DNA of 64,000 nt from a bacterium (GTDB taxonomy: Bacteria; Patescibacteriota; Microgenomatia; UBA1400; UBA12108), in the NCBI GenBank assembly GCA_021788365.1, contig JAJYKS010000003.1, forward strand, positions 6,283 to 70,282, written 5' to 3'. Made by a program: the position numbers and the translations under genes. How positions within the stretch are numbered: position 1 is the stretch's first letter; the number at the start of each line of letters is the position of its first letter. Of the stretch, positions 406 through 44,694 are shown piece by piece. Under the pieces are notes generated by a model. It searched no databases. It was not told the DNA's origin and saw only the letters and a program-made list of their open reading frames with translations.

Positions 406-816
406 TACCTATCAGTTTATCAGTTAACCGGCGAGCCGGCGAATCCTTTGGCGGGCTCACGACTATGCCAGTTGCCTATTTTATTGACGTGCCGGTACGC
501 AACACGTAGTTTTTTTGTCCTATATCACGTACTTCCCTATTTATGTTCTTTGTTTGTACGTTTTATTTCGTTTTGTTTGCTCGATATCCGCCTCTTTCTT
601 TTCCCCCCTTTTTTGTATGTACGTTTTTCCACGTTTTTTCTTGGTCTGTAAGTTAACCTTCGTTACAACGTTTTTTGTGAGAATTATATATGGCCGATAG
701 TAGTATTCACCGCGACGGTAGACCAGTTAGTCAGCTAGTCGATGGGTCGGTTTATCGGCAAGTCAGAAAATTTAGGGTTGGTGGGAATTGAGCACGGAGT
801 AGCAGGTCAGATTATA

Positions 817-2484: not shown

Positions 2485-2508
2485 GAGACAAGTATATCGG
2501 TAGATCCG

Positions 2509-5258: not shown

Positions 5259-5576
5259 TTACAAACTTTTTAGTTCTAAAATGATTTGAGTGTTGGCTGT
5301 ACGAGATTTTTTGAGAGCAATTGGTTTGTAGACCACAACACAGTCAAGATTTTTATCTTTAATTAGCGGCCAAAGGGTGTCGTAGGTTATGCGCCTTAGC
5401 CAATTGCGGGTCGTTGCCAACTTGGAAAGCTTCCTTGAAACAATCACGGCGAGGCGAGAAGGGTTGGGAGACGGGGCATAGTAAAACGTAAAGTGCGGCG
5501 TCGTCGAGCGCTTGGCTTGAACACGAAAATTGATAAGTTTTGTGCGGAGCGGAAACTTCCTTGACCGAGGGATCAT
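5259..5576 (-). CDS. rnpA: RNase P protein component
   Basis: 105 aa, basic. The RLAVIVSRKLSKLATTRNWLRR motif and its position after rpmH fit rnpA. Confidence 0.8.
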   Translation of the reverse strand: MIPRSRKFPLRTKLINFRVQAKRSTTPHFTFYYAPSPNPSRLAVIVSRKLSKLATTRNWLRRITYDTLWPLIKDKNLDCVVVYKPIALKKSRTANTQIILELKSL

Positions 5577-5585
5577 GAAGCTATT

Positions 5586-5720
5586 TTATACCGTTAGCTT
5601 TTTACGGCCTTCGGCGCGGCGGCGAGATAAGACTTGACGACCTTTATGGGTGCTCATGCGCTTTAAGAAACCGTGGACGTTGCGGCGTTTGGCTTTTTTA
5701 GGCTGATAAGTACGTTTCAT
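5586..5720 (-). CDS. rpmH: 50S ribosomal protein L34 (not in the supplied ORF track; below its size cutoff)
   Basis: The reverse-strand translation [44 protein letters not shown] (44 aa) is canonical L34. Confidence 0.85.
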
Positions 5721-5851
5721 ATAGTGTGAATTTTAACAAATGGGAGAGGATTTGTCACGGAGGGATATACTTCCGTCGTATTGTCCGCTGTGGATAACTT
5801 GTGTATAGTCATCCTATCCTGCCTTGATTTTTTATTGCTGTTTTAGGGGTA
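5721..5851. promoter_or_regulatory. rpmH-dnaA intergenic region with a perfect DnaA box and an AT-rich stretch (oriC part / dnaA promoter)
   Basis: TGTGGATAA (reverse complement of TTATCCACA) lies at about 5779-5787. An AT-rich run (ttgattttttattgctgtttta) and the SD AGGGG precede the dnaA ATG. Confidence 0.5.
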
Positions 5852-7222: not shown

Positions 7223-7460
7223 TGTGGATAACTATGGGGAAAAGTCTGTGGATAGGTGAGTGGAAAGTGGTAGGAAAACTAACCCATGTTATGGGTAAAA
7301 GTGGAGAAGTTTGGGGTTATACACCACCCGCTAAGTTATCCCCAGTTTTATCCACCGCGTTTTCCCCCACTCCTACTCGACATGTTTTCCGGAAATCCAC
7401 CGCGCCTACTAGTACTACTACCTTAATTATCTATAATAGGGGGATCATAAAGGAGCCATT
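7223..7460. promoter_or_regulatory. dnaA-dnaN intergenic DnaA-box cluster (candidate oriC)
   Basis: The region holds TGTGGATAA (7224-7232), TGTGGATAG, TTATCCCCA and TTATCCACC. A canonical SD AAAGGAG precedes dnaN. Confidence 0.55.
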
Positions 7461-8558
7461 ATGAATATTGAGATTTTACAGGAACAGCTTGCTAGCGGGC
7501 TCACCTCCGTGCTTCGTGCCGTGTCGTCTCGAGCTCAGCTCCCCGTGCTCTCCCATGTACTTCTTGAAGCTACGGCCGATGGGATTACTTTATCGGCAAC
7601 AGATCTAGAACTGGGTATTCGTATAAAGATCCCCGCTAAAGTTAGCGAGCCCGGAACCATTACCGTGCCCGCCAAGATGCTTTTTGAGTTTCTTTCATCG
7701 CTATCCCCGGGGAAGGTGTCGCTGGCTTTTGCGGGGGAGACGCTTACCGTAGCCTCTGGTTCATATTCGGCAAGTTTCCAGACCCTTCCCGTTGAGGAGT
7801 TCCCCACCCTTCCCGTTTTTACCAAAGAAATTATGGTTGCGACTATTAGGCTCTCGGACTTGACGAGGTCAGCAGATCGAGTAACCTTTGCAAGTGCCAA
7901 GGACACTTTGCGGCCGGCACTTACTGGCGTTCTCCTTGAGTCGGGAAAGGAATTGACTTGTGTTGCAACAGATGGGTTTCGCCTGGCCGTACAAAAAATT
8001 CCGGTTACTTCTGGTAGCGGATTCGCAACATCTCTACTCGTTCCTGCTCGAGCAATCGGAGAAGTGGCCCGGACGGCATTCCCCGAAACCATAGATGTTG
8101 GTTATATTGCCGAGTCGCATCAGCTGCTTTTTTCCTCCCCTGAAACGATGGTAGTGACACAGCTTTTAGATGGCAACTTTCCTGATTATGGGAAAATTCT
8201 TCCCAAGGAGTTTACTTCGGAGCTTTTACTTTCCCGAGCTGAGTTGCTGCAAGCTGTTAAGGCTGCCCATATTTTTGCACGCGACAACTCCAATATGATG
8301 CGGTGGAAGGTGGAAAAAAAAGAACTAACCATCTCTGCGCGCAGTCCCGAGCGAGGGGAGTGTGTGGTTCGGGTGCCAATTACCACTACCGGCGAAGATG
8401 GGGAAATAGTATTTAACACAAAATATATTCTGGATTATTTGGGCGTTGCCGAGGCTGACGAGCTATGGTTCGGGATGAAGGGCTCGCTTGCTCCCGGAAT
8501 GTTCCGCGATGGAAAAAGTGACACCGGGATGTATGTTGTTATGCCAATAAATGCGTAG
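7461..8558 (+). CDS. dnaN: DNA polymerase III beta sliding clamp
   Basis: 365 aa with a three-domain clamp pattern (LLEATADGITLSATDLELGI...). It directly follows dnaA. Confidence 0.9.
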   Translation: MNIEILQEQLASGLTSVLRAVSSRAQLPVLSHVLLEATADGITLSATDLELGIRIKIPAKVSEPGTITVPAKMLFEFLSSLSPGKVSLAFAGETLTVASGSYSASFQTLPVEEFPTLPVFTKEIMVATIRLSDLTRSADRVTFASAKDTLRPALTGVLLESGKELTCVATDGFRLAVQKIPVTSGSGFATSLLVPARAIGEVARTAFPETIDVGYIAESHQLLFSSPETMVVTQLLDGNFPDYGKILPKEFTSELLLSRAELLQAVKAAHIFARDNSNMMRWKVEKKELTISARSPERGECVVRVPITTTGEDGEIVFNTKYILDYLGVAEADELWFGMKGSLAPGMFRDGKSDTGMYVVMPINA

Positions 8559-8604: not shown

Positions 8605-10542
8605 TCAGTTTGTCGGCTGAATCGGAGTGGAAACGGGGTTTGCTTGCGGGCCGGCATTCTGATTCGCTGGCACACTAGCCCGCTGATTTGCTGGTGTGCT
8701 ACCCGGCTGATTGTCCGGAATTTTGGCTGCCATGGCCACGGCTAGTTTTTGCTGCTTTGCCAAAAGTTCTCGAGGGTCGGTGGTGATTAGGCCATGCTCT
8801 TCTGGGGAGGCGACAACTTTTATGGCGACGTGGTTTTGGCCGGCGAAAAAAAGCGCTTCACCAACCTCGGCGGTGAGTAGCAAGTGTCGCTCTCCTTGGG
8901 AGAGATAGAAGACTTTAGCAAGGTTTTCTATCGCGGAAGTCGATTGTTTCATTAAAACCTGGATACTGCTGTTGCTGACGATAGCCTTCCCGTGGTCTGA
9001 TTTAAGAAAATCATCCACATCTTGTGTAATGGTGGTGAGCCCTAGAAAGTATTTGCGGGCTCGCTTGGCAATACTATAGAGAAAGTTGGCGGAGTCTTCG
9101 GATTTCATGAGGTACCAGGCCTCATCAACTACCAGTAAACGCCTCTTCATGTCGCGCTTTACCTTGGTCCAAATATAGTCAAGAATGATAAAGATGGCGG
9201 TTGGGCGCAGCTCGTCTTGAAGATTCTTAATACCAAACACTGTGAGTCTGTTTCCGAAGTTGACGTTTGATTTCTGTGAAAAAATGCCTTGAAAACTTCC
9301 CTTTACGTATTTTTCTAGCCTGTCTGCAAGGCCGCGGGCAACAGACTCTTCCATGCCAACAAGCGCCTTATATAAATCCTCCATGAGCGGTGGTTCTAGG
9401 TTGTGAGTTGCTGGGTCGCGCGTAATTCCCTTCATCTGATAGGTCATAACCAGCGCGCGGTCGAGGAGAGCTTCCTCGGTTGGGTTCATGTCGCCCATCA
9501 TGATTTTTAACAGTGAGTGGAGCGAGATGATTTTCATAGCGAGCTCGTTTTCATCCGGCTCAGCCATTTGTGGCAGCTCAAACGGATTTATACGATTTGG
9601 ACTGCTAAAGCTAAAATCAACATAGGTGCCACCCAGGGTTGTTGCAAGTTTGCGATACTCGTCTTCAGGGTCAATTGCAATAACCTCCGTGTCGAACAAC
9701 ATAGAGCGCAAAACCTCGAGTTTTACCATGTAGCTTTTGCCAGAACCGGATTTGGCAAACACAACCATGTTGGCGTTCTCTAGCGTAAAGCGATCAAAAA
9801 TAACGAGCGAGTCGTTGTGCTCATTGATGCCATACATAATCCCTTCATTTGCGGTCAGCTCACTTGAGGTGAAGGGAAAGGTGGTGGCAAGGCTCGTTGT
9901 GTCCATGTTGCGGTTAATTTTTAATTTGTCGAGGCCGGTGGGGAGCGTCGTCTTGAAGCCATCTTCTATTTGTAGCGTGGCAGTTTTGGCAACAATGAGG
10001 AGCGCGCCCAAAGCACTTTTTACTTGATTGGTCACCCGGTCGAGCATATCCTTTTTGTCGTCCCGGATCGTAACATAGAGTCCGAATTGAAAGAAGCGTT
10101 CGGCGCCCTTGGCGAGTTGTTCTTGTAGGGCGCGAGCATCTTCGAGCTTTACCTGAGTGTCAATGTTGACGATTCGGCCACGCTGGATGTCGCCCGCTAT
10201 TTCAGCCTCCATCTCGGCGATCTTGCGGCGCAAGTCTTCGATAACCCCTTTACCCTCTACTGGGTAAATAAACATAGAGATAGTAAGGCTGTGATTAAAG
10301 TTTATGAGTGGCGAAAGCCAGTTGGCGTTTACAAAGCGTGGGTAGCCGGCGACAAAGAGGGTGCGGTAGTAGGTATCGTTGATTTTAATATCGGAAAAAT
10401 CGACCTCAATGGCTTCTGGGGCGATAATGTCTTTGACGTTGGACGTTCCCTGTGAGAGAACTTGTACCGGCTGAGAGACGGCAGGGCCACTAGTATCGTC
10501 TTTCTTTTTCGGCATGAATGGAAAGGGCAGGTTAAGAGCCAT
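8605..10542 (-). CDS. VirB4/TrbE/CagE-like type IV secretion ATPase
   Basis: 645 aa with Walker A VVFAKSGSGKSYMVKLE, Walker B LLVVDEAW, and the N-terminal DUF87-like region typical of VirB4. The low-complexity C-terminal tail (PANQ repeats) is encoded by the octamer-periodic element. Confidence 0.8.
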   Translation of the reverse strand: MALNLPFPFMPKKKDDTSGPAVSQPVQVLSQGTSNVKDIIAPEAIEVDFSDIKINDTYYRTLFVAGYPRFVNANWLSPLINFNHSLTISMFIYPVEGKGVIEDLRRKIAEMEAEIAGDIQRGRIVNIDTQVKLEDARALQEQLAKGAERFFQFGLYVTIRDDKKDMLDRVTNQVKSALGALLIVAKTATLQIEDGFKTTLPTGLDKLKINRNMDTTSLATTFPFTSSELTANEGIMYGINEHNDSLVIFDRFTLENANMVVFAKSGSGKSYMVKLEVLRSMLFDTEVIAIDPEDEYRKLATTLGGTYVDFSFSSPNRINPFELPQMAEPDENELAMKIISLHSLLKIMMGDMNPTEEALLDRALVMTYQMKGITRDPATHNLEPPLMEDLYKALVGMEESVARGLADRLEKYVKGSFQGIFSQKSNVNFGNRLTVFGIKNLQDELRPTAIFIILDYIWTKVKRDMKRRLLVVDEAWYLMKSEDSANFLYSIAKRARKYFLGLTTITQDVDDFLKSDHGKAIVSNSSIQVLMKQSTSAIENLAKVFYLSQGERHLLLTAEVGEALFFAGQNHVAIKVVASPEEHGLITTDPRELLAKQQKLAVAMAAKIPDNQPGSTPANQRASVPANQNAGPQANPVSTPIQPTN

Positions 10543-10544
10543 AT

Positions 10545-10672
10545 CCTATCAGTATACCAGCTAGTCGGCGAGTCGGCGGGCCGGCATGTCGGCTTGTCAG
10601 CGAGGCCGGAAAACCGATGCACCGATTTAACTGATTGGCTGACTAGCTGATTTGCTGATTTGCCGACTATCT
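10545..10672. repeat. Octamer-periodic (NNGTCGGC)n / (GCTGATTT)n intergenic element, one of at least five copies
   Basis: TAGTCGGC GAGTCGGC GGGCCGGC ATGTCGGC TTGTCAGC ... GCTGATTT GCTGATTT GCCGACTA. It is flanked on the gene side by CAGTATAcc (TATACT -10 on the coding strand) 8 nt before the VirB4 ATG. Confidence 0.5.
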
Positions 10673-11305
10673 GGCCACGTTGGGGGCGACGACGGGCTGC
10701 TCGTAGTCGGCGGCGGTGCCAAATTTTTGCCCCTTTACCGTTGCGTTATAGAAGCTGTGAAAGAGGGACATAAGATTTTGGGTGTTGAGCTGGTTAGCTG
10801 TTAATCCAATGCGCGTTAGTTGCTTAATAATGTGATCGCGCTTTGGCTCGAGGTCGGCCTTCGCTTTGTCGATAAGACTTTGGTCTATTACCACCTTTCC
10901 TGAAAGGGTGATCATCTGATAGGAAATAACCACATAAAATTTTTTATCCAAAACATTCTGTTCGGTGATTGTTGTTTCCACAAACTGGCGGTACTTGTGC
11001 ATGCGGTCTTGCAAAACGGGATCGTGAAGCTTTTTCTCTTGTGTGCTTAGTAACTCGAGGTAGGAGCTAATGTCCTTTTTGTCGGATTTTACGACTATTT
11101 GGATGGGAAAACTAAGCGAATTTAGTAGGCCGGCATACGCGTAGATGGTGGCGTCTTGTTCTTCCTCAGAAAGCAGGCCAAAATTAATGGCGGAAGTAGA
11201 TATTAACATGCTGCAGGTGCCATTTTTTAATATAACGAGGTCATCTTGGATTGTTTCTACGTCGAGATGATCCTGAGTGGTTGCGACAATGACATTGTTG
11301 TCCAT
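10667..11305 (-). CDS. Hypothetical protein of the T4SS-like cluster
   Basis: 212 aa, soluble, no recognised motif. It is preceded by a TATACT leaderless-type promoter and an octamer array. Confidence 0.45.
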   Translation of the reverse strand: MDNNVIVATTQDHLDVETIQDDLVILKNGTCSMLISTSAINFGLLSEEEQDATIYAYAGLLNSLSFPIQIVVKSDKKDISSYLELLSTQEKKLHDPVLQDRMHKYRQFVETTITEQNVLDKKFYVVISYQMITLSGKVVIDQSLIDKAKADLEPKRDHIIKQLTRIGLTANQLNTQNLMSLFHSFYNATVKGQKFGTAADYEQPVVAPNVAR

Positions 11306-11437
11306 ACGGACTCAGTATATCAGTAGGTCGGCAAGTCAGCGAATCGGTTGGTCGGTATGTCGGCTTGCCAGTAATCGCCGAAACCTGGCTTACAGGTTTA
11401 GCTGGTTAGCTGACCCGCCGGTTTGCTGGTGTGCCGA

Positions 11438-12475
11438 TTATTGTGCTCGGAGGAGGATGGGGGGGATGATGTCTCCTTTGGTTGTCAGCGATTGTGGGGC
11501 GAACTTGAGACCATCCTTTTCCACTTCAATGGCATAGGAGCCGTTTCCGAGAGGTGTGGTGGTAAAAAACTGTCCAAGGCCGTTGGTTTTCATGGCGCGG
11601 GCGGGGATCCCGTCTCCCATCACTACCTGAACAATGGCGTTTTCTACTAGGTGCCCCCCTTTGTCGACGACTATTCCCGTTATCACATTGGGGATTTGGG
11701 GCGCGGCGGGCAGCTTAATTGTTGTCAGGGGGGTAGACGCAACTTTTGGCGCGGTAGTGGGGCTTGTGGGGCGGGAGAAAACCACATCAACCGTTGGCGG
11801 AGGGCTTTGTGGGGTTTTTGTGGGTGCTGCTGCAACGGTGGGTGTTGGCGTCACGGGGATCGATATCGTACGTAACGGTGGCGCGGGCGGGGTCGCCGCC
11901 GGAGACGGAGCGTTGTTATCGAATACTATACTTTTTGCTTTTAGTTTGCGGATTGTTACTGCGGGCTTGGCGCTACTGGTTTCGACGATGGTAACTGGTG
12001 GAACGGCGGGGGAGATGTGTACTTTCTGAAATAGCGCGTCGACCTCGTGGACCTGCTTTGCTTCTTCTGTCGAGAGGTCGCTTGTTACCGTTTTTCGTAC
12101 GGGAAGCGTTGGTGCTTTGAGTGTTTTTACCGCCGTAGGAGTATCTACAAAAATGTGGGCGGCGAAGGTAAACATTTCAGGAATGGTATTTGTCTTTTTC
12201 CAAACGAAACGGGTGGGGCCATAGATGGCTTTAACAAAATTAAGTGCCCAGATGTCCAGTGGACGATCTTCGAGTGGAAAGAATGCAAAGGCTATTCCAC
12301 CAAAAAGCGAGATGAGTGCGAGCGGCCACTTGAATATAAAAATCAGATTGCTCGCATAGAAAAGGTAGGCGACGAGCATCCCGGCAGCTAGTTCCAAAAA
12401 TTGTTTGAGCGTCATGTCTCCCACAAGGCGGAACTGATATTGTGTAACGTTCTGAGGAATGGGGTGTTGCTGCAT
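11438..12475 (-). CDS. PrgI/VirB3-like membrane protein with a Pro/Thr-rich linker and a C-terminal beta-sandwich (carboxypeptidase-regulatory-like) domain
   Basis: The N-terminus FRLVGDMTLKQFLELAAGMLVAYLFY plus two TM helices resembles PrgI-family VirB3 analogues. A long PT-rich spacer precedes the GIVVDKGGHLVENAIVQV...GSYAIEVEKDGL fold. The likely start is the ATG at 12473-12475 (MQQHPIP; the ORF-track start at 12499 is a TTG), with a TATACT box 6 nt upstream. Confidence 0.5.
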   Translation of the reverse strand: MQQHPIPQNVTQYQFRLVGDMTLKQFLELAAGMLVAYLFYASNLIFIFKWPLALISLFGGIAFAFFPLEDRPLDIWALNFVKAIYGPTRFVWKKTNTIPEMFTFAAHIFVDTPTAVKTLKAPTLPVRKTVTSDLSTEEAKQVHEVDALFQKVHISPAVPPVTIVETSSAKPAVTIRKLKAKSIVFDNNAPSPAATPPAPPLRTISIPVTPTPTVAAAPTKTPQSPPPTVDVVFSRPTSPTTAPKVASTPLTTIKLPAAPQIPNVITGIVVDKGGHLVENAIVQVVMGDGIPARAMKTNGLGQFFTTTPLGNGSYAIEVEKDGLKFAPQSLTTKGDIIPPILLRAQ

Positions 12476-12508
12476 GGCTCTAGTATACAGGGTTAACAAA
12501 AGAGAACA

Positions 12509-13183
12509 CTATTGTTGTGCTGCCGGCGATTCTGGAGAGGGTGAGGGTAGGGGTGATGGTGTGGGCGTTGGCGAGGGAGCTACAACGGTGTAGGCGTGGG
12601 TTGCCGGGTCTATCCCATGAGACTGTACCCAGGATTTGATCTGTGAAATTGCAGTCGCTTGGTCGAGGGTGTCGCTTTTTAGATCAATTTCGAGCGTGAG
12701 CGGGGCGCTATAAACAACTCGGTAGAGCGCTGTTTCGTATGGCGTGAACTGGGAGAGCGGGTAGTTTTTGTCGAGGTCTGATTGCAAACCTTGAAGATAG
12801 CGTGGGTCGTTTTGTTCATGAGCGGTAGTAAAACTAATGGTTCCGACGATTTGTCCCTTCTCATTAATCGTAACAGTATAATCGCTGGCGACCCTGAGGT
12901 ATAGTTGGTGGTCAAGCTCGATGGTGTTGGCATCCTTTTGTTGAATACTCCATAATTCTTCAGGGACAGAGGTCGCTGTAACATCGCTTGCGACGATTGG
13001 TTGATTGAAGACAATGATAATCGGACCAAAAACACTTGCTTCAGTTGTATGATTCCCCGGGGAGGAAGTGATGATTGCTGGTAGCGATGGGGCGGGCTTG
13101 GTTTTGTTGGATAAGTAGATTAGAGAGACAATAAATGCTACTCCGATTGCAACTGCCAACACGATTTTTATTTTTTGCTTCAT
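12509..13183 (-). CDS. Membrane-anchored/secreted hypothetical protein with a C-terminal Pro/Ser/Thr tail
   Basis: 224 aa with an N-terminal TM/signal anchor (KIVLAVAIGVAFIVSLIYL) and a C-terminal PSPTPTPSPLPSPSP tail. Confidence 0.45.
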   Translation of the reverse strand: MKQKIKIVLAVAIGVAFIVSLIYLSNKTKPAPSLPAIITSSPGNHTTEASVFGPIIIVFNQPIVASDVTATSVPEELWSIQQKDANTIELDHQLYLRVASDYTVTINEKGQIVGTISFTTAHEQNDPRYLQGLQSDLDKNYPLSQFTPYETALYRVVYSAPLTLEIDLKSDTLDQATAISQIKSWVQSHGIDPATHAYTVVAPSPTPTPSPLPSPSPESPAAQQ

Positions 13184-13192
13184 TGTTTTATT

Positions 13193-15973
13193 TTAGTCTT
13201 TTCGTAAATAACCAGTAATTTGTGCCTTTTCGAACTTTCCATTGGTGCGAGCTATTCCTGGGGCAGAGTAATTAGCGTCGCAAGCAGTAATAAGCGCTCC
13301 GGCGTCACCACAATCTACTCCTATGTGTCCCGGCGAGCCGTCACTACAACTACTAGATCCCATAACAAAGAAATCTCCAGGTCGCATGCCTGCTGTTCCT
13401 GAAATGTATTTATATCCGGAAGGGGCGTTGTTGACATATGAGCAAGCATTGATTTGGGGAAAATTTTGATTGTAGGCAAGTCCGGCCGTTGCAGCAACGA
13501 ACCCAACACATTGGAGGTGACCTGTCCCTATGGCGGAGGCCTCCAAGGCGTTTGCGGCCGCTTTTGCTAGGACTGCCACTAATTTTTGCCACCAAGAATT
13601 TCCAACCATGTCTTTAGTGAGGGGATTTAGGTTAAATTGGGTGAGGTAGCTAGCTATACATGCGGCGGCGTTTGCTGCTGGCGAACCAGTGGTTTGCGTT
13701 TGTGTCCCCTGTGTAGCATTACAAACGACAGCAGCAATATATGATGTGCCAGAGTCGAGCGGGGTAGTAACCTTGAGTGAATAGAAAAAGATACTGACTA
13801 CCGCGATTGCCCCCACGGCTATAAGCAATGCAGTATAGAACGTGATGACGAGAAAGTCCCAAACCAGTTTTCCAAGTGCCCTTAGTGTTTCCCAGGCCGC
13901 CATGAGCGGAACGGTAATCCCAGCAAATAATGCAAAAATACTGGCGATAAATAGTGGGACAACACCCCATAGATTGCTGGCGTCGCCATGGAAGATCGTG
14001 CCGAGGAATTTGGAGATCTTTCCGATGACCGACTTTCCAACCTCCCAGAGCACTTGTACTCCAAGGAGGATGAGGCCAATGCCCGCCTCACTTGTTGCCG
14101 CACCAATTATCTTGACAACCTTGTCTCCTAACCCGGCGGCAAACTTATTACCAGCAGAGGCTATTACTTTTGACACCGCCTTCCAGGTGGTTTTTTTGAA
14201 TACTCCCCAAGATTCAAATCCGGCACCCCGTGCGGTCCAGTCGAGAATGTTTCCCCATTTTTTTTCTAGAAAGAAAAAATTAGCCTGACGCCAACTCGCA
14301 TCGTTTTTGTAAAAGAGCTTAGAATATTGAGAGACCTGGCGGAAAAAGCCGGAGTACCATTTGTTTTTCTTCCCCAGGGTGGTGGACCACTTAAAGACTC
14401 TTAAAGCAATCCCTTTTTGCATGTTGATCCAGCCGTCATATATGAACTTCGACGGATTCAAGATGGGATACTTGTCTTGAAGCACAAACCAGGTGCTGGT
14501 GGGCCAGTGAATAACTTTGTCGACCTTTAGATATGCGCTGTATACTTTTGCTCTGAATTTATCTATAGGCTGCGTGGGGCGCCTCGTTGCGTTGAGATTG
14601 CCGGTGAGCTTGTCAAAAAATTCTCGTGCGGCATAGAAGGGGTTTCCGTCGATTTGCGAGTGGTAGAGGCCGTAGCTTTCCTGGGTGTTTATGAGCTGCG
14701 CGAGGTTCCCGAGCTTGCCTAAATCGGCGGCGTCCCCCTTGCCAAGTTCTTGTTGGTAGGCAAGTAAGGGATTATTGGTGTGATATTCGGCAAGTATGCT
14801 CGCGGCGAGAGCGTCTAACGTTGTCTTGTCTGTCCATGGAATTTCTGTACTTACCCCCGCGAGCGCTGCGATCCTGGCGGTAGCCATCTCGCGCTGATTT
14901 CTATCCTGCAACCTGGTTCCTGTGAGCCGCTCCAACGCCGAGGCCTGTATCTCCTCGACATAAGGGGAAAGTATTTCGAGGCGTGTTTCCAAGGTTGGAG
15001 ATCTAAACCCAGCGCTAGCTAGAGCCTCCTGAATAATGTCAGCCCCTGACATAGGATTTGTCGTTCCCGCGGTGACAATGACTTTGCGCAGAGAGCTGAC
15101 GAGCGCCCTTCGTTCGTTCACTGGTGCGTCGGGGAGTACGCTACGGACCATCGTGTCGAGGTCTGCAAGGGTTGGCGCAAAACTGGCGAGCGCACGGAGC
15201 CGGCCCATGTCGGCGAGGTATTCTGACTCGTCGGCATAGATAGCTTTTATGCGCGCGTTAATTGTCGTAGTAATTTGGGCAAGATCCTTTTCCATGGCGT
15301 CTGCGTGGAGACGGTGAGTAAAGGAGTTGATGTCTCCTTGGTTTGCGTGAGGAAGCAGAAGATTGCCGATTTTTGAGGGGAGGTCTTCTAATGCTTGTGG
15401 GGACGTATCGCGAAGATTATATGAATTGGCGGCGAGGATCGCGGCAACAAGGCTGCGATCTCGGGGACTTAGTCCGGCGAGAGCTTTGTTCATTTCAAGC
15501 TCGCTCGTCATTATCCCAAGGAATTTTCTGTTGAGGATTTCTAACGTTTTCCGTCTAAGCTCTAGAGACTTTTGTAGTGCTGCTGAGCGAGCGTCTGGAA
15601 CGTACTTGGTTGCCGGTATCAACGGGTGGGCAGCCTGCTCCTGCATGTAGGGATAGTTGGTGGCGGCTTTGGTACCTCCCGCGACGATGTTTTCGGCTTT
15701 TACTTCAAGATAACGGAGGAGGCTACGTGCACGAGCGTAGCTTGGGCCACGATCGCCAACGGGAAGGCCTATCTCGTCAGACCCCGCCCAAGCGGCGATA
15801 ATACCCCAGGCCGTTTCGGCGTCTAGAACGAGGGTGTCGGAGAACTCAACGCTCTGTCCATTTTTAATTCTGGACAGTAGTTGTTGGAGATACTTGGTAT
15901 CCTCTCCCTTTGCTTTGGTATTTAGGAGGGAAAGGATCAGCTGTCTTTGTGCGGCGGTGACGGTTGTTGCCAT
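13193..15973 (-). CDS. Large multi-domain protein with TM segments and a C-terminal CHAP (NlpC/P60-like) peptidoglycan hydrolase domain; VirB1-like function inferred
   Basis: 926 aa. A central hydrophobic block is followed by a C-terminus with catalytic-Cys/His spacing (LQCVGFVAATAGLAYNQ...GDFFVMG...PGHIGVDCG) characteristic of CHAP amidases. A leaderless-type TGtTAGAAT promoter lies 6 nt before the ATG. Confidence 0.55.
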   Translation of the reverse strand: MATTVTAAQRQLILSLLNTKAKGEDTKYLQQLLSRIKNGQSVEFSDTLVLDAETAWGIIAAWAGSDEIGLPVGDRGPSYARARSLLRYLEVKAENIVAGGTKAATNYPYMQEQAAHPLIPATKYVPDARSAALQKSLELRRKTLEILNRKFLGIMTSELEMNKALAGLSPRDRSLVAAILAANSYNLRDTSPQALEDLPSKIGNLLLPHANQGDINSFTHRLHADAMEKDLAQITTTINARIKAIYADESEYLADMGRLRALASFAPTLADLDTMVRSVLPDAPVNERRALVSSLRKVIVTAGTTNPMSGADIIQEALASAGFRSPTLETRLEILSPYVEEIQASALERLTGTRLQDRNQREMATARIAALAGVSTEIPWTDKTTLDALAASILAEYHTNNPLLAYQQELGKGDAADLGKLGNLAQLINTQESYGLYHSQIDGNPFYAAREFFDKLTGNLNATRRPTQPIDKFRAKVYSAYLKVDKVIHWPTSTWFVLQDKYPILNPSKFIYDGWINMQKGIALRVFKWSTTLGKKNKWYSGFFRQVSQYSKLFYKNDASWRQANFFFLEKKWGNILDWTARGAGFESWGVFKKTTWKAVSKVIASAGNKFAAGLGDKVVKIIGAATSEAGIGLILLGVQVLWEVGKSVIGKISKFLGTIFHGDASNLWGVVPLFIASIFALFAGITVPLMAAWETLRALGKLVWDFLVITFYTALLIAVGAIAVVSIFFYSLKVTTPLDSGTSYIAAVVCNATQGTQTQTTGSPAANAAACIASYLTQFNLNPLTKDMVGNSWWQKLVAVLAKAAANALEASAIGTGHLQCVGFVAATAGLAYNQNFPQINACSYVNNAPSGYKYISGTAGMRPGDFFVMGSSSCSDGSPGHIGVDCGDAGALITACDANYSAPGIARTNGKFEKAQITGYLRKD

Positions 15974-16020
15974 AGCGCTATTCTAACAGTTGCAGGGCAT
16001 AAAATGGTATAATCTGGGGC
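15974..16020. promoter_or_regulatory. Divergent promoter region with two back-to-back leaderless-type extended -10 boxes
   Basis: Plus strand: TGGTATAAT, then 7 nt, then ATG (16021). Minus strand: TGTTAGAAT, then 6 nt, then ATG (15973). Neither has an SD. Confidence 0.5.
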
Positions 16021-19000
16021 ATGGCTATCCAGGAAAAATTGGGAGAAGGGTTCGAGGCTGCACAGCATTCTGGGTTTGGTGAGGCGGGTGCGGATGGCGT
16101 GGTAAAAGAAGCGTTAAAACAGATCAAAAGGGATAAAGGCCCGAGTAAACTAAGCCCTGATCAGACGAGAACATTGTTGCTTCTAGACATATTGCGTACG
16201 CTATCTGCCGACAAAGGACTGACGGGAATAAAGTCGACCCTTGATAGGCTGGAGACACAATTTTCTGTCGCGGCAATGGCCTCTTTTGGCCAGAAAGATA
16301 TTGATGTCATCGCTGAACAGCTGGAAAGACAAGGAAAGAAATTCCAAGCTGATGTTGGAGGTCCGGACAAGGATTTATTGAAAGATGTGGGTTTGCTTGT
16401 TAGGAGTTCGAGGTGGGCGGATGCGTCGGCATTGGTTAGGCGCGCGATTGTTGACGCTAACACGAGGCGTGAAATTGATTCAACACAAAATACTCGATTA
16501 GTGCAGTCTGTTGATGATTTTGATTCTGCAAACCTTGGGCGGATGCGATCTCGTATCGTCGGACTAGAAATGGAACAGGTGGCGAGGAAAGTTCCCGGTA
16601 CTGGTGAGATAGCTAATGAAATGGAACGAGCCGCTCGACTAGAGGTTGGTGTGGCCAGAAGGTATGTGGAAATACTGAGGGGAACTCCACAGCAAGATGA
16701 TATAGACCCCAGCCTAAAGATAGACACGGCTGTTATAGCGGAGGCCGACATTAATTCCTTTGTAAATGACTTACATAGTAGGAGTCCTAAAATAGCAATG
16801 GCAGATGAGCGAAGGCTACGCCATTTTAAACAGGAGGTTACCAGCAATTGGAGCGATTTAAATACGGGGATAGATTTGGATGAATGGTCTCGTGGAAGCG
16901 ATAGCGTTCACCAGGACAGACAGCGCTATATTAGAGAGGCATCTGCTGTGGCGAACCACGTTTTGTTTCTGAAGGCAAGGGGAGAGGTAATACTGTCTAC
17001 GAACGAGGAGGAATACTTGAGGGCGGTGCAAAAGGCCACATCGGCGGTGAAGCGGTCGTGGGTGGAGGAAGCTGTCCATGAGGGGGAAGCAGCTACTCCC
17101 ACAGATGAATTGACCCCAGATGAGGTGCGAGAGTTAAAGAAACAGGCCTCCAACATTGGTTTACTGGCAGAGATGGGTAGTGGACAAGGGTTTGCGGATT
17201 GGGCTAAGCGGCAAAGGACGCGCAACCCGAGAGGGAGTTGGAATTTAGACACAGAAAGTTCTGAGGGGGGGTTTAGCTTTCAGGAAAAAATAATGGAGTT
17301 GCGCGACGCCGGAATGTTGGAGATTGAAGACGGGCAGATAGTGTGGCTAAAGGGTCCGGACGAGTTCTTTGGAGTAATGTCAGAACTAGCGCGTGACGTG
17401 TCGGCGATAGTGCCAGAAGTAAACCAAATACCCTTTTCCAGGTCACCTAAAGCTATGTTGTATCAGGCTTTGATGGAATCGGCGGCGCATCCAGGGAGTC
17501 GGGGGGATCTGGCTTGGGCGAAGGATGCGGTATTCCGTCTATACACAATGGGATATGTAAAGGAGGCGTTGTGGAAAAAGGGTGGAGACGTAGAGTCATT
17601 TGCCGGCGCCGCACTCGCCCTGTTGGGTCAAGGAGAGGATGATACTGTTTATTCATCTTTGTTTAGATTTCACGAGACGGTAAGAGAGAGGGGATCTACG
17701 GGTGAGATAGGGGATGAAATAATAAAAATTGACCTTCGGGATATGCTAGATTTTTCCGAGCGATACTCAAGAGTGAGGGATGGAAAGCGAAGCTGGTTGA
17801 ACGCGATTTCTGCTGGAGAGCTTAATAGCGGCGTGCACGATGCTACAAGTAAGCCACAACGAATGGAATTTTTTTATGATTATATGAAATGGGTGCTGGA
17901 TAGACAGCTGGACATGGGAGAGATAGATGCAAATACACATACAAAGAGAATAGCGGCTATTGGTACGTCTGCTCATGACAGAAAACACGAAAATATCTTT
18001 GATGTATATGGTCAGTATTATACAAATTTAGTAAAGGTGATGCAGTCTATCCAGCTGAGGTATGGCGAGGTGGCCGTAAACCAAGTGATTAGCGGGGGTG
18101 GATTCGAGTTTTGTAATCCCCCTGGGGGTGAGGCTCCCTATAAGTATCATAAAAATACCGTATGGAAGTTTTGTGCGCGGTATGTCCCCAATAATAAATT
18201 TGCTGAGTTTTTGGACGCTTACGACGGTGGAGTAGATATGGCCATGGTATCGTCGATTGCGTATGCACGCAAGGAGACAGTGCCGCATTTTTGCTTAGAG
18301 AGTAGTGAGCCGGGCGCCAATCCGGGCGCCGACAAATATTTCTTTGAAACCGAGGCAAATTTGTCCAATCGAGCTAAGTGGGCTAAGCAGTGGGTCAATT
18401 TTTGGAAGCCGGCTATGTTCGACAGCGATGCACATCGAGATGGAAAGTATCGCGATACTGATGAAATTAGGATGATCGAAGAAACGCAGGAGATTGCTGA
18501 GAGACAATTGAATAGTTGGTCGGCCGCCGACTTAGGATTCATTGACCATGTTGATTATACAAAATTAAGTGAGGCGAGTGGCTACGACTTTGAGCAAATT
18601 TTCCAAAGGAAAAACATTACTGATCCGAAAGAAAAGTTTAAATATGTAATTAAGAATTATGGATATAAGTATTTTGAGTGGAATGGGTTTCGATCTAAGA
18701 GGGTGGGAGATTTTTACACGAAGTACTTGCCGAAGAATTATGCGGGGGTGTACGGGGCAGCTATCAAGTTGAGTATGAATGCAACAAATGACGAATCTGC
18801 GTTTGAAGCGTCGCAAAACATTGACGCGTTTAGTGGCTCGGAGAAATTTATGGAAGATATTGACGTTGTGATGGAAAAGATGAATAAGCGGACCTGGCTC
18901 GGTATAAGAAAACCTAAAACTAAAGGCGGCAAGGGGTGGTTGAACGTTGACCAAAAAGGAGAAAAGGCAAAGATTGATTTGGAGGGCGACTTTGAGTTGT

Positions 19001-19365: not shown

Positions 19366-20912
19366 GTTTCTTCTTTTTTGATTTGGTTTTGGGCGGTGTT
19401 TTGCTGTGTTTTTGAGAGGTTTCCACCCAATAGCTTTGCTTGGTACTCCATGAGGTGTCGTTGACGGCCCTCTTCTCTGGCGGTGTTGATCCAGCTTGTC
19501 GGGTACTTCATTGCTAATCCATATCCACCGAGAGTGTTGCCGAATGCCTCGGCGGTGTATGGAGACTCCTTTACCTGTAGCCAATCTTGCGCCATCTTGA
19601 CCGCGGCTGGAGTCATCAAAAAGATAAAGAAACCAATGAGCGTCAGAACGTCGGAGTTGTAGAGGTTGGCGTCGGTTAACGTGAATGGCGGTAACCAGAT
19701 TTTATCGCGGTTTTGATAGAGTGCGGCCGATTGGTTAACCCCAAAGGGGTTTGCGTCGCGGGGATCGAGTGAGCCTAGGATTGTTTTGTCGGTGGGGTTG
19801 CCTACGAGGATGGCGCTAAAAATAAACATGGCGGCTGCAACCGGGAAGGGAATGAGGTAGCTGGCGGTTGTCTTTAGCCAAGTACTAAACGATTTGCTAC
19901 CAGGCATGGCGTTCATGAGTAGTTGGAGCGGGGCTGTTATGGTCTGTACGATGAGCATAACGTACGCTTTTACCAGTGCAAACATGAGCTTTAGCATGGC
20001 TATGGCGAAGGCGATCGCGACTATAAGATAACCTATCCCAAAGATACTGACAAACCCAACTACCGAGCCAGCAGCCCCTAGCACACCGGTGCCAAGTCCT
20101 GATAAAACGGCCCTGATAGAGGCGGCAACCGCTGAGATAATACTATTTCTTCCTGCAAAGATTACCGACCAAGCGGAATAGGACATAAAGCGGGTAATGA
20201 GCTTGGTGGGGTCGGAAATGATGCCCGCAGCCGCGACGAGGTACACCAGGAAATAGATAAGAAAATACATGAGGTCGATCATAAAGCCGACGATGGCGTA
20301 GCTAAAGGTGATGAGGATGAGGGTGATCAGAAGATTGGGGAGGGCGCTTTGAATGGTGACGATCGTTTGACCGCTAATCTTTGTTCGCAGCATGATCATA
20401 ATGCCGACAACCACAAACATGATGATATATAGAGAGTAGGCAACGTCACGAAATACTTTCCAGAATGGTAAGAATGGGGACATGGCCGTGTACCCCGTAC
20501 CTTGGGCGAACGCGTGCTGCACGGGGGAAAGGCCGGTGTTGCCTAGTAGGTCGGCGATGTATTCCTTGCTCGAGGGCATCATGGGGTCTGAATAGAGATA
20601 GGCGACAAAATTCCCGCTCTGAGGGACTAGGCCGGTAAGAACCTGATTGCCGCAGCCGTCTTGTAGTCCCACCACTTGTGTTGTAAGCGAAGCAATAATT
20701 GTCCCGGTGAGTCCTGGCCGCGTGGGATCGGATGGGTATGGTGTACTACACTTTGTTGAGGATGATGGCCTTCCCAGCATGTAGGGAACGAGACTGATGG
20801 ATTGCGAATTGAGACTATCTAGCTCGCTTGCCGCGTGAACCGGCTGAGCGACGAAAAATGTTGAAAAGAGTGCTACAAATAGTGGCAGGCAAAAATAAGC
20901 CAAGCGCTTCAT
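19362..20912 (-). CDS. VirB6/TrbL-like polytopic membrane protein with a signal peptide
   Basis: The likely start is MKRLAYFCLPLFVALFSTFFVAQPVHA (signal peptide; the ORF-track TTG start at 20963 is less likely). About 6-7 TM helices with long hydrophobic stretches (YLVYLVAAAGII..., IGYLIVAIAFAIAML). A TGcTAGAAT box lies 7 nt upstream of the ATG. Confidence 0.5.
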   Translation of the reverse strand: MKRLAYFCLPLFVALFSTFFVAQPVHAASELDSLNSQSISLVPYMLGRPSSSTKCSTPYPSDPTRPGLTGTIIASLTTQVVGLQDGCGNQVLTGLVPQSGNFVAYLYSDPMMPSSKEYIADLLGNTGLSPVQHAFAQGTGYTAMSPFLPFWKVFRDVAYSLYIIMFVVVGIMIMLRTKISGQTIVTIQSALPNLLITLILITFSYAIVGFMIDLMYFLIYFLVYLVAAAGIISDPTKLITRFMSYSAWSVIFAGRNSIISAVAASIRAVLSGLGTGVLGAAGSVVGFVSIFGIGYLIVAIAFAIAMLKLMFALVKAYVMLIVQTITAPLQLLMNAMPGSKSFSTWLKTTASYLIPFPVAAAMFIFSAILVGNPTDKTILGSLDPRDANPFGVNQSAALYQNRDKIWLPPFTLTDANLYNSDVLTLIGFFIFLMTPAAVKMAQDWLQVKESPYTAEAFGNTLGGYGLAMKYPTSWINTAREEGRQRHLMEYQAKLLGGNLSKTQQNTAQNQIKKEET

Positions 20913-20932
20913 ATAGTGAATTCTAGCACACC

Positions 20933-24287: not shown

Positions 24288-24572
24288 TCAAAAACCAAAC
24301 TTAAACTGGGTAACCTGTACGCCGGTAATTGTTTGAATGGCGAGTAACACCAGCCATGAAATAATGGCAAGCGCAATCCCAACGACAGCGAGCGTGATAA
24401 TCTGTTTTCCCGCTTCGAGATTTTTTGTATCACTGCCGGCAGTTAGGATTTTAAATCCCCCCGAAAGAATCATTAGAAACGCGATGACTCCGATTAGGGG
24501 AATCGCTGCGGACAAGATGTTGCCAAAGTACGTGGGAAGGTCTGATAGTTGTGCTGCATCACCGACTGCCAT
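24288..24572 (-). CDS. VirB2/TrbC-like T4SS pilin paralogue 1
   Basis: 94 aa with two TM helices flanking the TAGSDTKNLEAGKQIITLAVVGIALAI motif. A TGCTATAAT box lies 6 nt before the ATG (leaderless). Confidence 0.65.
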   Translation of the reverse strand: MAVGDAAQLSDLPTYFGNILSAAIPLIGVIAFLMILSGGFKILTAGSDTKNLEAGKQIITLAVVGIALAIISWLVLLAIQTITGVQVTQFKFGF

Positions 24573-24754
24573 ATGGAGAGATTATAGCAGGAAGAAGTGG
24601 TCAATGATGTTTTGTCTCGCCGTGTTCTCAAATGAAAGACCGACCCACCTGGTCGCGTGCGCCACAATTTTGCAGTGCTCACAGCTTACTGGAACAACCA
24701 GTTCGACGCTCCGCGCTGAAAATTGCTCTGCACGCTCCCCTTTTGGCGAGTTAC

Positions 24755-25105
24755 TTAGTAAGCTTTCGGGGGGTTGATGTTGCCATTCAATACTGAAATC
24801 CCGAAGAAGTATTGAATGATAAGCATTACAGCCCATGCGGAGGCAACGACGGCAAGACCAACCAAGGCGGCCGTTATGCGATCGCGTGCTTCTTGTGTCT
24901 TCCCCTTGTCACCACCAGAGGTGATCCACTGAATGCCACCCCAAATAAGGTAGGCAAAAACGAGCAGGGCGGCTATCAAGAGTGCGCCTTGGACGGCACC
25001 CTGAATGAGCGTGCCGATGTTGGTAATCTGGACGTTGTCAGGCTTGTTGACGGATAGGTCGGGGGCTGCTGGTGCTTGAGCTAGAGCTACTGGGATAAGA
25101 TTCAT
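24755..25105 (-). CDS. VirB2/TrbC-like T4SS pilin paralogue 2
   Basis: 116 aa with the GGIQWITSGGDKGKTQEARDRITAALVGLAVVASAW motif. It has its own TTGACA-N17-TAAACT promoter and a canonical SD AAAGGAGG. Confidence 0.7.
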   Translation of the reverse strand: MNLIPVALAQAPAAPDLSVNKPDNVQITNIGTLIQGAVQGALLIAALLVFAYLIWGGIQWITSGGDKGKTQEARDRITAALVGLAVVASAWAVMLIIQYFFGISVLNGNINPPKAY

Positions 25106-25162
25106 ATATTTCCTCCTTTATGTGTGTAGTTTATTTTTTTATACGCCTGTTGTCAATTTATT

Positions 25163-26272: not shown

Positions 26273-26614
26273 TTAGTAGCTCCCCGGACCCGTGATACTG
26301 GGCTGCAGAATGGCGGTTGCGGAACCGAAAAGTAGGAAGCTGACGACGCCGGTTATGGCGGCTGCAGCGACCATGACTATGAGGCCAATCAGCGACATAT
26401 TGATGGATGAAATGGCTTGTTCTATCTTCTTTTGGTCGCCATTGCTGGTTATGTAGGTGAAACCGGCGTACATGAGATTGAAAAAGGCAAAAAGGCCAGC
26501 AGCGGCGAAGATAACCTTAACTACGTTGGAGATGAAAAGGGGAAGGCCAGTGTTGACCGAGCCATAACTCGTGGACGGTAAAGGGTTGTTGATGCCACCA
26601 AATACACTTGCCAT
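26273..26614 (-). CDS. VirB2/TrbC-like T4SS pilin paralogue 6
   Basis: 113 aa with AGFTYITSNGDQKKIEQAISSINMSLIGLIVMVAAA. Confidence 0.65.
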   Translation of the reverse strand: MASVFGGINNPLPSTSYGSVNTGLPLFISNVVKVIFAAAGLFAFFNLMYAGFTYITSNGDQKKIEQAISSINMSLIGLIVMVAAAAITGVVSFLLFGSATAILQPSITGPGSY

Positions 26615-26622
26615 AGGCGCTA

Positions 26623-26979
26623 TTATAAACCACTGTTGAGGATCTGCACTCCTGTAACAACTTGAATAATCTGGATGATCCAGTATGATCCGAAAAGTAC
26701 CAATAAACCAACTAACGCAGATGTGATGATTTTACTTCCTTCTTTGGTTTTTTCTGAGTTCCCAGCGTTTGCGACAATGGTAAAGCCGCCGAACACGATC
26801 ATAAAAAAGATAACAAGGCCAGCAGCAACGTAGACGTTGGGGAGGATGGCGTTTATCAGCTTGCTTGCATTGGGGTAGGTAGAGGTGGCAGTGGAATTGC
26901 CCTGGAACAGAAGCTTGTCGCCGAGATTGAAACCAGTAGCGGCCATAGTGAGGAAATTATAGCAGGTTGAGCTGGCCAA
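26623..26979 (-). CDS. VirB2/TrbC-like T4SS pilin paralogue 7 (first gene of the operon)
   Basis: 118 aa with GGFTIVANAGNSEKTKEGSKIITSALVGLLVLFGSY. A TGCTATAAT box lies 9 nt before the ATG. Confidence 0.65.
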   Translation of the reverse strand: MASSTCYNFLTMAATGFNLGDKLLFQGNSTATSTYPNASKLINAILPNVYVAAGLVIFFMIVFGGFTIVANAGNSEKTKEGSKIITSALVGLLVLFGSYWIIQIIQVVTGVQILNSGL

Positions 26980-27057: not shown

Positions 27058-27155
27058 ATCCATGTTCGCATTTAGAGTAGAATTCGCTCAAAGTTTCTTA
27101 ACGTATGCACAAAAATCGTTCTCGGCCAGTTTATGGGGGGGGTAGAATAGCGGGT

Positions 27156-38618: not shown

Positions 38619-38659
38619 AAATCCCGACTGCACGCCCTAATTTTTTCTTGAGGTAGAAT

Positions 38660-39529: not shown

Positions 39530-39597
39530 AATGCACGAATGGTACCATACATCAGGCAATTTGTCCAGTTCCTACGATCTGTACTATGCTATAGACA

Positions 39598-40286: not shown

Positions 40287-40295
40287 AATGGTTTT

Positions 40296-44670: not shown

Positions 44671-44694
44671 AACGAAGAAATTATATCAGGGAGG

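Follow-up and report, generated by a model that had tools for sequence, protein, structure and literature searches.

The sequence analyzed here, called the window below, is a stretch of 64,000 nt from the forward strand of contig JAJYKS010000003.1 (GCA_021788365.1), positions 6,283 to 70,282. It is part of a genome of the Candidate Phyla Radiation (CPR), or Patescibacteria, and is placed in the Microgenomates group because the closest relatives of its VirB4-like protein (83 to 89% identity) are found in metagenome-assembled genomes (MAGs) labelled Woesebacteria or Microgenomates; more distant relatives are spread across Shapiro-, Chisholm-, Beckwith-, Curtiss-, Gottesman-, Collier-, and Pacebacteria. 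The window has a GC content of about 49% and carries rpmH-rnpA-yidC, dnaA, and dnaN, adjoining a type IV secretion system (T4SS)-like cluster with a VirB4/TraG-like ATPase, a PrgI-like protein, and several PF18895 T4SS pilins. In addition, it contains an ECF sigma factor gene, mevalonate pathway genes, smpB, the transfer-messenger RNA (tmRNA) gene, glycogen metabolism genes, a suf cluster, and tsaD/tsaE. The element under study is a hexamer of the form TANNNT, resembling a -10 promoter element and referred to here as the box, which lies a few nucleotides upstream of many start codons. The spacer at 15974..16020 contains two such boxes back to back, each with an extended -10 form, 22 bp apart, and nothing else promoter-like. 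The original prediction had described this arrangement as a recurrent promoter architecture of leaderless mRNAs, with eleven instances.

The frequency of the box was determined on a gene set of mechanically called, nonoverlapping open reading frames (ORFs), in which only the first ATG of each long ORF was used to avoid circularity. TANNNT was present 6 to 8 nt upstream of 26 of 64 first ATGs (41%), compared with 80 of the 1869 other ATGs in the window (4.3%; odds ratio, 15; P = 8.5e-18). The stricter form TA.A[ACG]T was found at the same distance from 31% of first ATGs and 0.5% of other ATGs, and the odds ratios against other ATGs ranged from 15 to 85. Within the 40 nt upstream of the 64 starts, 12, 9, and 6 sites were located at gaps of 6, 7, and 8 nt, respectively, and about one or two at other gaps. 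Against 200 dinucleotide-preserving shuffles of the window, GnTA.A[ACG]T-N6-8-ATG occurred 20 times (3.6 +/- 1.8 in shuffles) and TGnTANNNT-N6-9-ATG 21 times (7.0 +/- 2.7), with an excess of z up to 8.9. By class, 27 first-ATG starts were box-type, 14 were Shine-Dalgarno (SD)-type, and 23 were neither, which agrees with the predicted coexistence of the two modes. Only 2 of 56 starts, in a count of 56 ORFs, carried both signals. SD-like 4-mers peaked 5 to 8 nt before starts. The only non-ATG site in the list (Table 1) is the GTG of the FkbM methyltransferase gene, largely because the screen covered ATG starts only.

The start codons themselves are supported by several observations. Pfam matches of the SmpB, GlgA, GIY-YIG, and DsbD-like proteins begin at residues 1 to 4 (residue 1 for GIY-YIG), and in tblastn alignments to relatives, the first aligned residue is that of the ATG or lies only a few residues away. 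Additionally, a public Logan contig with an identical VirB4-like protein shares these starts in an independent gene call (proteins of 345, 212, and 645 aa, the first being PrgI-like). An exact-match look-up of SmpB translated from the ATG at 38666 returned no record and is uninformative about its start.

All ten protein gene sites and the tmRNA site of the original prediction were present, with two slips. The instance placed at 26979(-) refers to the TTG that opens the longest ORF, and the start codon of its TGCTATAAT-9-ATG is the one at 26946, in the same reading frame; at 24572(-), box and ATG are separated by 8 nt rather than 6 nt. The site at 12475(-) is present, but its TG abuts the hexamer (CTG-TATACT) and falls outside the canonical TGn register. 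The total of eleven was an undercount, as at least 30 starts in the window carry the arrangement. The proposed concentration in the T4SS-like cluster was not borne out: 9 of 15 starts within it and 18 of 49 outside it were box-type (P = 0.14), and most cases are housekeeping genes, so that a T4SS-specific promoter class was rejected. Box-type starts outside the cluster include rpmH, rnpA, smpB, glgA, sufS, tsaD, and the HPF and FBP aldolase genes, as well as the genes for the DsbA-like protein, the DsbD/thioredoxin fusion, the P-type ATPase, the MFS transporter, and the HIT protein.

Table 1. Coordinates of box-type starts, divergent spacers, boxes of noncoding RNA genes, leadered contrasts, and period-8 arrays in the window
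Feature	Position (strand)	Gene or remark
TGATAAACT-7-ATG	404..422 (-)	ORF continues past the window edge; a period-8 array ends in the box
CGATATACT-6-ATG	2482..2499 (-)	Polysaccharide flippase-like gene
GTATAAAAT-6-ATG	5574..5591 (-)	rnpA; rpmH stop TAA forms the first three hexamer bases
TGTTAAAAT-9-ATG	5718..5738 (-)	rpmH, ribosomal protein L34
TGGTATACT-8-ATG	10540..10559 (-)	VirB4/TraG-like ATPase
TGATATACT-8-ATG	11303..11322 (-)	212-aa T4SS-cluster protein (g11305)
CTGTATACT-6-ATG	12473..12490 (-)	PrgI-like
GACTAAAAT-6-ATG	13181..13198 (-)	Big_5-domain protein; upstream stop codon inside hexamer
TGTTAGAAT-6-ATG	15971..15988 (-)	926-aa protein, no Pfam match
TGGTATAAT-7-ATG	16005..16023 (+)	1114-aa protein, no Pfam match
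TGCTAGAAT-7-ATG	20910..20928 (-)	516 aa
TGCTATAAT-8-ATG	24570..24589 (-)	T4SS pilin
GTTTATAAT-7-ATG	26612..26630 (-)	T4SS pilin; TAA stop of upstream pilin inside hexamer
TGCTATAAT-9-ATG	26944..26964 (-)	T4SS pilin, ATG 26946
GGGTAGAAT-7-ATG	27140..27158 (+)	ECF-type sigma factor
TGATAGGAT-6-ATG	33897..33914 (+)	SpoIID-domain protein
AGGTAGAAT-6-ATG	38651..38668 (+)	smpB
TATGCT-6-ATG or TACTAT-9-ATG	39582..39599 (+)	Double zinc-ribbon protein
CGGTAAAAT-6-ATG	40281..40298 (+)	Glycogen/starch synthase (glgA)
GTCTATACT-6-ATG	44422..44439 (-)	GIY-YIG protein
GGTTACAAT-6-GTG	45129..45146 (+)	FkbM methyltransferase
TGGTAGAGT-6-ATG	47416..47433 (-)	DsbD/thioredoxin fusion
TGTTATAGT-8-ATG	47455..47474 (+)	Ribosome hibernation factor (HPF)
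CTCTATAGT-7-ATG	50305..50323 (-)	P-type ATPase
GGGTATAGT-8-ATG	50351..50370 (+)	Class II FBP aldolase
TGATAAAAT-6-ATG	56440..56457 (+)	sufS, inside the Rrf2-sufCBD-sufS-sufU cluster
AGATATAAT-8-ATG	59102..59121 (-)	tsaD
TGGTACAAT-6-ATG	59374..59391 (+)	HIT protein
GGGTAGGAT-7-ATG	60866..60884 (+)	MFS transporter
AGTTATAAT-7-ATG	62114..62132 (+)	FAD/NAD oxidoreductase
GGGTATAGT-7-ATG	63287..63305 (+)	DsbA-like thioredoxin
Divergent pair	15973 / 16021	Spacer 47 bp (15974..16020)
Divergent pair	45101 / 45144	Spacer 42 bp
Divergent pair	47418 / 47472	Spacer 53 bp
Divergent pair	50307 / 50368	Spacer 60 bp
Divergent pair	60843 / 60882	Spacer 38 bp
TGGACA-17-(TGG)TACCAT	39539..39567 (-)	Predicted tmRNA promoter, 9 nt before G1
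TGATATAAT	44680..44688 (-)	tRNA-Ser(GCT), 9 nt before G1
CGGTATAAT	44790..44798 (-)	Second tRNA-Ser, 12 nt before G1
AGGAG-5-ATG	7451..7463 (+)	dnaN, SD-led contrast
TTGACA-17-TAAACT, ~16-nt leader with AGGAGG, ATG	25103..25156 (-)	Pilin 25105, leadered contrast
Period-8 arrays	408-439, 743-766, 2509-2548, 8569-8616, 10545-10600, 11308-11371 (-)	
Period-8 arrays	8651-8674, 10606-10678, 11402-11441 (+)	

The sequence of the box was examined by aligning 30 sites on the hexamer, in which T-12, A-11, and T-7 were fixed by the search. The consensus was (T/G)GnTAtAaT. At positions that the search did not impose, A was found at -9 in 26 of the 30 sites, A at -8 in 19, and T at -10 in 16. G occupied -14 in 22 of 30 sites (73%), and -15 was T in 13 (43%) and G in 10 (33%). 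TGn preceded 12 of the 30 hexamers, compared with 6.5% of all TANNNT sequences in the window (P = 1.7e-7), and G at -14 was also found in 21 of 30 and 35 of 62 boxes of two sets of related loci. The predicted TGn extension of the -10 boxes was thus upheld. The 30 aligned sites showed no positional consensus around -35, and TTGACA matches of at least 4/6 at 16- to 18-nt spacing occurred at 10% of sites, compared with a background of 12%. A scan of the window for two-hexamer promoters showed no enrichment (26 versus 22.7 +/- 4.4 expected) and missed the box sites, a failure that is consistent with promoters lacking a -35 element and is no evidence against them. The sites are predicted extended -10 promoters without a -35 element. 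Promoters of the extended -10 class in E. coli and Gram-positive bacteria are bound through a TG contact that replaces recognition of a -35 element. The sites in the window share with these the TGnTAtAaT form and the absence of a required -35 hexamer, but differ in that the predicted +1 coincides with the start codon and that G at -14 is more conserved than T at -15. At four starts, the end of the -10 box and the discriminator read AATAGCG (15979-15985, 26615-26621, 27149-27155, and 33929-33935; contexts TAGAATagcgct, TATAATagcgcct, TAGAATagcgggt, and TAAAATagcgac), a repetition that may reflect a discriminator preference.

The arrangement was most frequent where genes diverge. Eight of ten starts that face a divergent neighbor across a spacer of 16 to 60 bp carried a box, and the spacers of 38 to 60 bp have no room for two promoters and two leaders. 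Back-to-back boxes imply that polymerases compete for the same DNA. At 60857-60874, the opposing boxes TAGAAT (60857-60862, minus strand, Sua5/TsaE gene) and TAGGAT (plus strand, MFS gene) are separated by 6 bp; two RNA polymerases therefore cannot both bind, and the pair should be mutually exclusive. For the Sua5/TsaE gene, the start codon is ambiguous, as the box is separated by 4 nt from a GTG and by 13 nt from the first ATG.

Conservation was investigated in two sets of loci, one surrounding the VirB4-like gene in 80 genomes and the other surrounding smpB in 16 metagenomic contigs; in each locus, the orthologous ATG was located. A box was scored as conserved when TANNNT lay 5 to 9 nt before the conserved ATG, and distinct relatives were counted. 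Over eight families, the box was kept in 70 of 79 relatives: VirB4-like gene, 11/13; g11305, 11/15, including all 11 close ones; PrgI-like gene, 7/8; rnpA, 11/13, as TATAAT; flippase-like gene, 9/9, at gap 6; smpB, 10/10, at gap 6 with G at -14; glgA, 4/4, including TACAAT-6-ATG; and the zinc-ribbon protein gene, 7/7. Most conserved boxes were at gap 6, and the DNA further upstream showed no visible similarity between relatives and was not alignable. For the 926-aa protein (15973), one relative, L001, was available, with TGCTAGAAT-6-ATG. In contrast, the control families dnaN, dnaA, and yidC, which are not box-type in the window, had a box in 4 of 38 relatives; those of dnaN kept an SD-like motif in 17 of 25 cases and a box in only 3 of 25. 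The contrast between 70/79 and 4/38 therefore indicates that the predicted initiation mode is a conserved, gene-specific character.

When the first-ATG test was applied to the related loci, a box was found at 46% of starts in the close relatives L001-L015 (62/136) and at 46% in the smpB set (30/65), both with almost no SD peak. In the distant Microgenomates L016-L080, the share was 21% (151/710) over a baseline of about 10%, with a clear SD peak. The peak at gaps of 6 to 8 nt recurred in the related loci. The trait occurs throughout the lineage and is most pronounced in this clade.

The box also precedes RNA genes that are never translated. The tmRNA at 39125-39529(-), confirmed by Rfam, has TGnTAnnnT exactly 9 nt before G1 in 15 of 15 related metagenomic loci, with TGATATATT, TGCTATAAT, TGGTACTAT, and TGATATAGT among the variants. 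A -35 hexamer resembling TTGACA, at a spacing of about 17 nt, was also present in several of these loci. The two tRNA-Ser genes of the window carry boxes as well (Table 1). Because the box stands at a similar distance from such RNAs, it is better explained as a promoter than as an mRNA signal, and this argues that the motif would function as a promoter at protein genes too. Genes with other forms of initiation served as a contrast. SD leaders or translational coupling were found for dnaN, the pilins at 25105, 25468, and 26271, the Rrf2 gene, sufD, and genes in overlapping operons. The SD sequences named earlier were confirmed for dnaN (AGGAG), the Rrf2 gene (GGAGG), and the pilins at 25105 and 25468.

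These features can be combined into a single mechanism. The housekeeping holoenzyme would recognize the -10 hexamer together with G-14 or TG, open the DNA with no need for a -35 element, and initiate at a position, by preference a purine, about 7 nt past the hexamer. As the hexamer ends 6 to 8 nt, occasionally 9 nt, before the ATG, the start purine at gaps of 6 or 7 nt would be the A of AUG; at gaps of 8 or 9 nt, transcription would start 1 to 3 nt before AUG, with a leader of about 3 nt at gap 9. Among the gap-8 sites, the seventh base after the hexamer, two positions before the ATG, is a purine in five of the six read, which suggests 2-nt leaders. Such mRNAs would have no room for an SD and could not pair with the anti-SD, and the ribosome would recognize the 5'-terminal AUG directly. 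Stable RNAs would keep a precursor leader of 2 to 5 nt, with protein genes placing the A of ATG at the expected +1. We consider it probable (roughly 0.8) that the extended -10 promoters would yield leaderless mRNAs or mRNAs with leaders of 1 to 3 nt, mixed with SD-led genes. The gap peak, the consensus, the conservation, and the short spacers agree with the predicted transcription start site (TSS) at or within about 2 to 3 nt of AUG. The architecture is real, conserved, and genome-wide, and the mRNAs of about four in ten genes in the window probably begin at AUG without a ribosome-binding leader.

Several points weigh against this interpretation. We infer the TSS and the mode of translation from the geometry between the -10 hexamer and the ATG, and gaps of 8 to 9 nt imply leaders of 1 to 3 nt rather than strictly none. 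The 3' end of the 16S rRNA, which carries the anti-SD, lies neither in the window nor in any fetched locus, and the first-ATG rule let a few spurious ORFs into the gene set (e.g., 51494-52753(-), opposite pgk). Moreover, 5 of 18 genes located at most 15 nt behind a gene on the same strand have a box (13183, 26614, 40296, 62130, and 31176). The upstream TAA overlaps the hexamer at 13183, 26614, 40296, and the rpmH/rnpA junction (5576), the junction boxes seldom have G at -14, and at least the box at 31176 looks like chance. The matches at junctions could be partly due to stop codons and A-rich spacers, with the genes translated by coupling. These junctions, the position of sufS in the middle of the suf cluster, and the lack of clear enrichment of terminator-like sites in the window (29 versus 21.4 +/- 4.8 expected), by which terminators therefore cannot delimit transcription units, would fit boxes that are real but in many cases secondary. 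In that case, the genes would be carried mainly on polycistronic transcripts and translated by termination-reinitiation or coupling, and leaderless mRNAs would be a minority. We regard this as improbable. The junction boxes are kept in relatives in which the stop lies outside the hexamer, as in glgA and rnpA, and the junction-box genes all lack an SD. First genes in the divergent spacers of 38 to 60 bp make the strongest cases, as an upstream transcript would there need to read through the opposite gene. Promoters at tight junctions, some sharing bases of the upstream stop, are expected in the leaderless interpretation because each leaderless gene requires a separate 5' end and hence a promoter of its own. 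The hexamers with an embedded TAA (TAAAAT or TATAAT) are at 5583-5588, 13190-13195, 26622-26627, and 40284-40289, and the TAA is donated by rpmH, the 926-aa gene, a pilin gene, and the zinc-ribbon gene, respectively.

The box might instead act in the mRNA, as a non-SD element that binds the ribosome or S1 in the manner of the group B genomes of Bacteroidota, with the true promoters further upstream. It lies at a distance typical of ribosome-binding sites and precedes some operon-internal genes, which is the criterion for group B (PMC6028130). However, the motif was absent before SD-led and coupled genes, rather than standing before essentially all genes as in group B, and both signals rarely co-occurred. 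G at -14 and TGn are specific to promoters, as are the invariant T-12, A-11, and T-7 and the A at -9; untranslated tmRNA and tRNA genes carry the box at 9 to 12 nt, that of tmRNA in 15 relatives; and the divergent spacers of 38 to 60 bp are too short for another promoter and a leader. This makes an mRNA element very unlikely. Least credible of all is an artifact of chance matches in A/T-rich intergenic DNA or of misplaced starts. TANNNT is indeed a loose pattern, with 1628 occurrences in the window, and 4 to 6% of arbitrary ATGs have one at 6 to 8 nt. Nevertheless, the odds ratios, the sharp gap peak, the excess over shuffles, the gene-specific conservation, and the starts supported by domain alignments and an independent gene call all stand against it. 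Chance or misannotation was effectively refuted by the comparison with other ATGs, the shuffles, and the conservation in orthologues.

The architecture is of a known kind, and the advance lies in its distribution and degree. Among the genes of Actinobacteria and Deinococcus-Thermus, the share that is TA-led, with TANNNT about 10 nt before the start, exceeds 20% (Zheng et al. 2011, PMC3160421); the average in Deinococcus-Thermus is above 30%, and the box takes the form TAtaaT in mid-GC phyla (PMC3160421). In group C of GeneMarkS-2, first genes have a Pribnow box 6 to 8 nt from their starts, SD sequences are used elsewhere, and 25 to 50% of operons are concerned (Lomsadze et al. 2018, PMC6028130). 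The window resembles both in having TANNNT 6 to 8 nt from starts without an SD, SD sequences at other genes, a weak or absent -35 element, and a large share of genes (about 40% of starts). It differs in its lineage, CPR Microgenomates, and in that its start sites are predicted from sequence. Furthermore, it comes from a mid-GC genome, in which an informative TAtAaT with frequent G at -14 or TGn takes the place of the degenerate TANNNT seen at high GC, and its boxes are also frequent at tight gene junctions. With regard to the confinement of the signal to first genes in group C, the box was strongest at the divergent starts (8/10), yet 5/18 close same-strand followers had one. In Mycoplasma with genetic code 4, 30 to 60% leaderless transcripts are predicted (MetaGeneMark-2 preprint, 10.1101/2022.07.25.500264). 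These genomes are likewise small, reduced, and not high in GC, with a promoter-at-start signal, but they belong to another phylum, and the window was read with code 11, the ORF calls being consistent with TGA as a stop codon. In archaea (group D), leaderless transcription also places the TSS at the start codon and is mixed with SD sequences inside operons; its signal, however, is a TATA box/BRE about 26 nt upstream, compared with a -10 box at 6 to 8 nt here (PMC6028130).

Full-text searches of the accessible literature found no paper that describes leaderless initiation for CPR/Patescibacteria, Saccharibacteria, Microgenomates, or TM7x, and CPR genomes may already be listed as group C. CPR ribosomes are reduced, with missing ribosomal proteins and a short bS1, and the anti-SD has been lost in part of Parcubacteria (PMC9297842). 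If the leaderless interpretation holds, the range of abundant leaderless initiation, so far documented best in Actinobacteria, Deinococcus-Thermus, and archaea, would extend to CPR, and a link between ribosome reduction and leaderless translation would become testable. If TSS mapping confirms it, gene starts in Microgenomates and related CPR genomes should be predicted with a promoter-at-start model in place of one based on the SD, which in the window would decide the starts 12475/12499, 26946/26979, 38666/38660, 50307/50313, and 63303/63294. The predicted stop-overlapping promoters, together with back-to-back promoters 6 to 33 bp apart, show how regulation can be packed into tiny spacers. A bolder proposal, to which we give slightly less than even odds, is that this clade would be among the most leaderless-dependent bacteria. 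About 45% of its genes, including rpmH, rnpA, smpB, and tsaD, would have a private -35-less promoter at the AUG, the SD would be almost absent in some close relatives (L001-L015 and L081-L096), and initiation at a 5'-terminal AUG would be tied to the reduced CPR ribosome. As a further part of this proposal, a subset of these promoters (TATACT type, window positions 400 to 11,450) forms the last unit of the period-8 arrays described below, and the arrays may be an undescribed upstream regulatory or promoter-generating element.

Short tandem repeats were observed near several box-type starts. Period-8 arrays consist of 3 to 8 units of CYGRnnnn, for example CCGACTCG CCGACTAG CTGGTATA CT. Ten were found, compared with 0.66 expected in shuffles, all in the first 11.5 kb, and Tandem Repeats Finder confirmed the period of 8. 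In four cases (10542, 11305, 2484, and 406), the last units form the TATACT/TAAACT -10 box of a leaderless-type start. Each T4SS intergenic spacer has two arrays that diverge from its center, and period-8-like arrays occupy the same places in the relatives L001, L006, L012, L013, L015, L037, and L051. The arrays could be binding sites for a regulator or a side effect of tandem duplications that gave rise to promoters. At 8569-8585(-), just past the VirB4-like stop, a CCGATATACT box ends an array and is directed into dnaN at its 3' end, antisense to that gene. It has no ATG 6 to 9 nt downstream and could be an antisense or small RNA promoter, or a mere property of the repeat unit. Period-7 A/T-rich arrays with (G)AAAATT-like units were found at 1262-1288, 2646-2672, 3541-3569, 4953-4982, 5208-5236, and 58857-58891. 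The one at 4953-4982 is directly upstream of the yidC start (4949), and that at 1262-1288 spans the junction of 817-1260 and 1279-2484; the others lie inside ORFs (flippase-like and Wzy-like genes, the 4985-5239 ORF, and tsaD). Short-period arrays were also seen 5' of the VirB4-like, g11305, and PrgI-like starts in the distant Microgenomates L018, L029, L037, L065, and L080. These genomes may generally have short-period repeats close to their gene starts.

A few further observations concern individual loci. The suf cluster (53298-58050) has the order Rrf2-sufC-sufB-sufD-sufS-sufU, in which the Rrf2 gene and sufD have an SD, sufC and sufB overlap the upstream genes, and a leaderless-type box is confined to sufS (56455), where it may be an internal promoter that uncouples sufSU. 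The rpmH-dnaA spacer contains a perfect DnaA box (TTATCCACA, minus strand) at 5787-5795, and a TGTGGATAA box lies 5 to 6 nt before the dnaA ATG in L001-L011, which suggests autoregulation right at the dnaA start codon. The two tRNA-Ser genes, 44693-44777(-) and 44586-44670(-), are adjacent, and each has its own -10 box. ARAGORN assigned the former the anticodon ACT (loop TTACTAA), and it is the only one of the two matched by Rfam at the gathering score; a serine tRNA with A34 is unusual in bacteria. Finally, the GC skew of the window is positive in nearly all 2-kb bins, with a mean of about +0.15; this holds regardless of the direction of the genes and on either side of dnaA. Complete Microgenomates genomes of the order UBA1400, e.g., Beckwithbacteria and Collierbacteria, have been reported to show a strand G/C disparity that is likewise continuous and of this size (PMC7143001).

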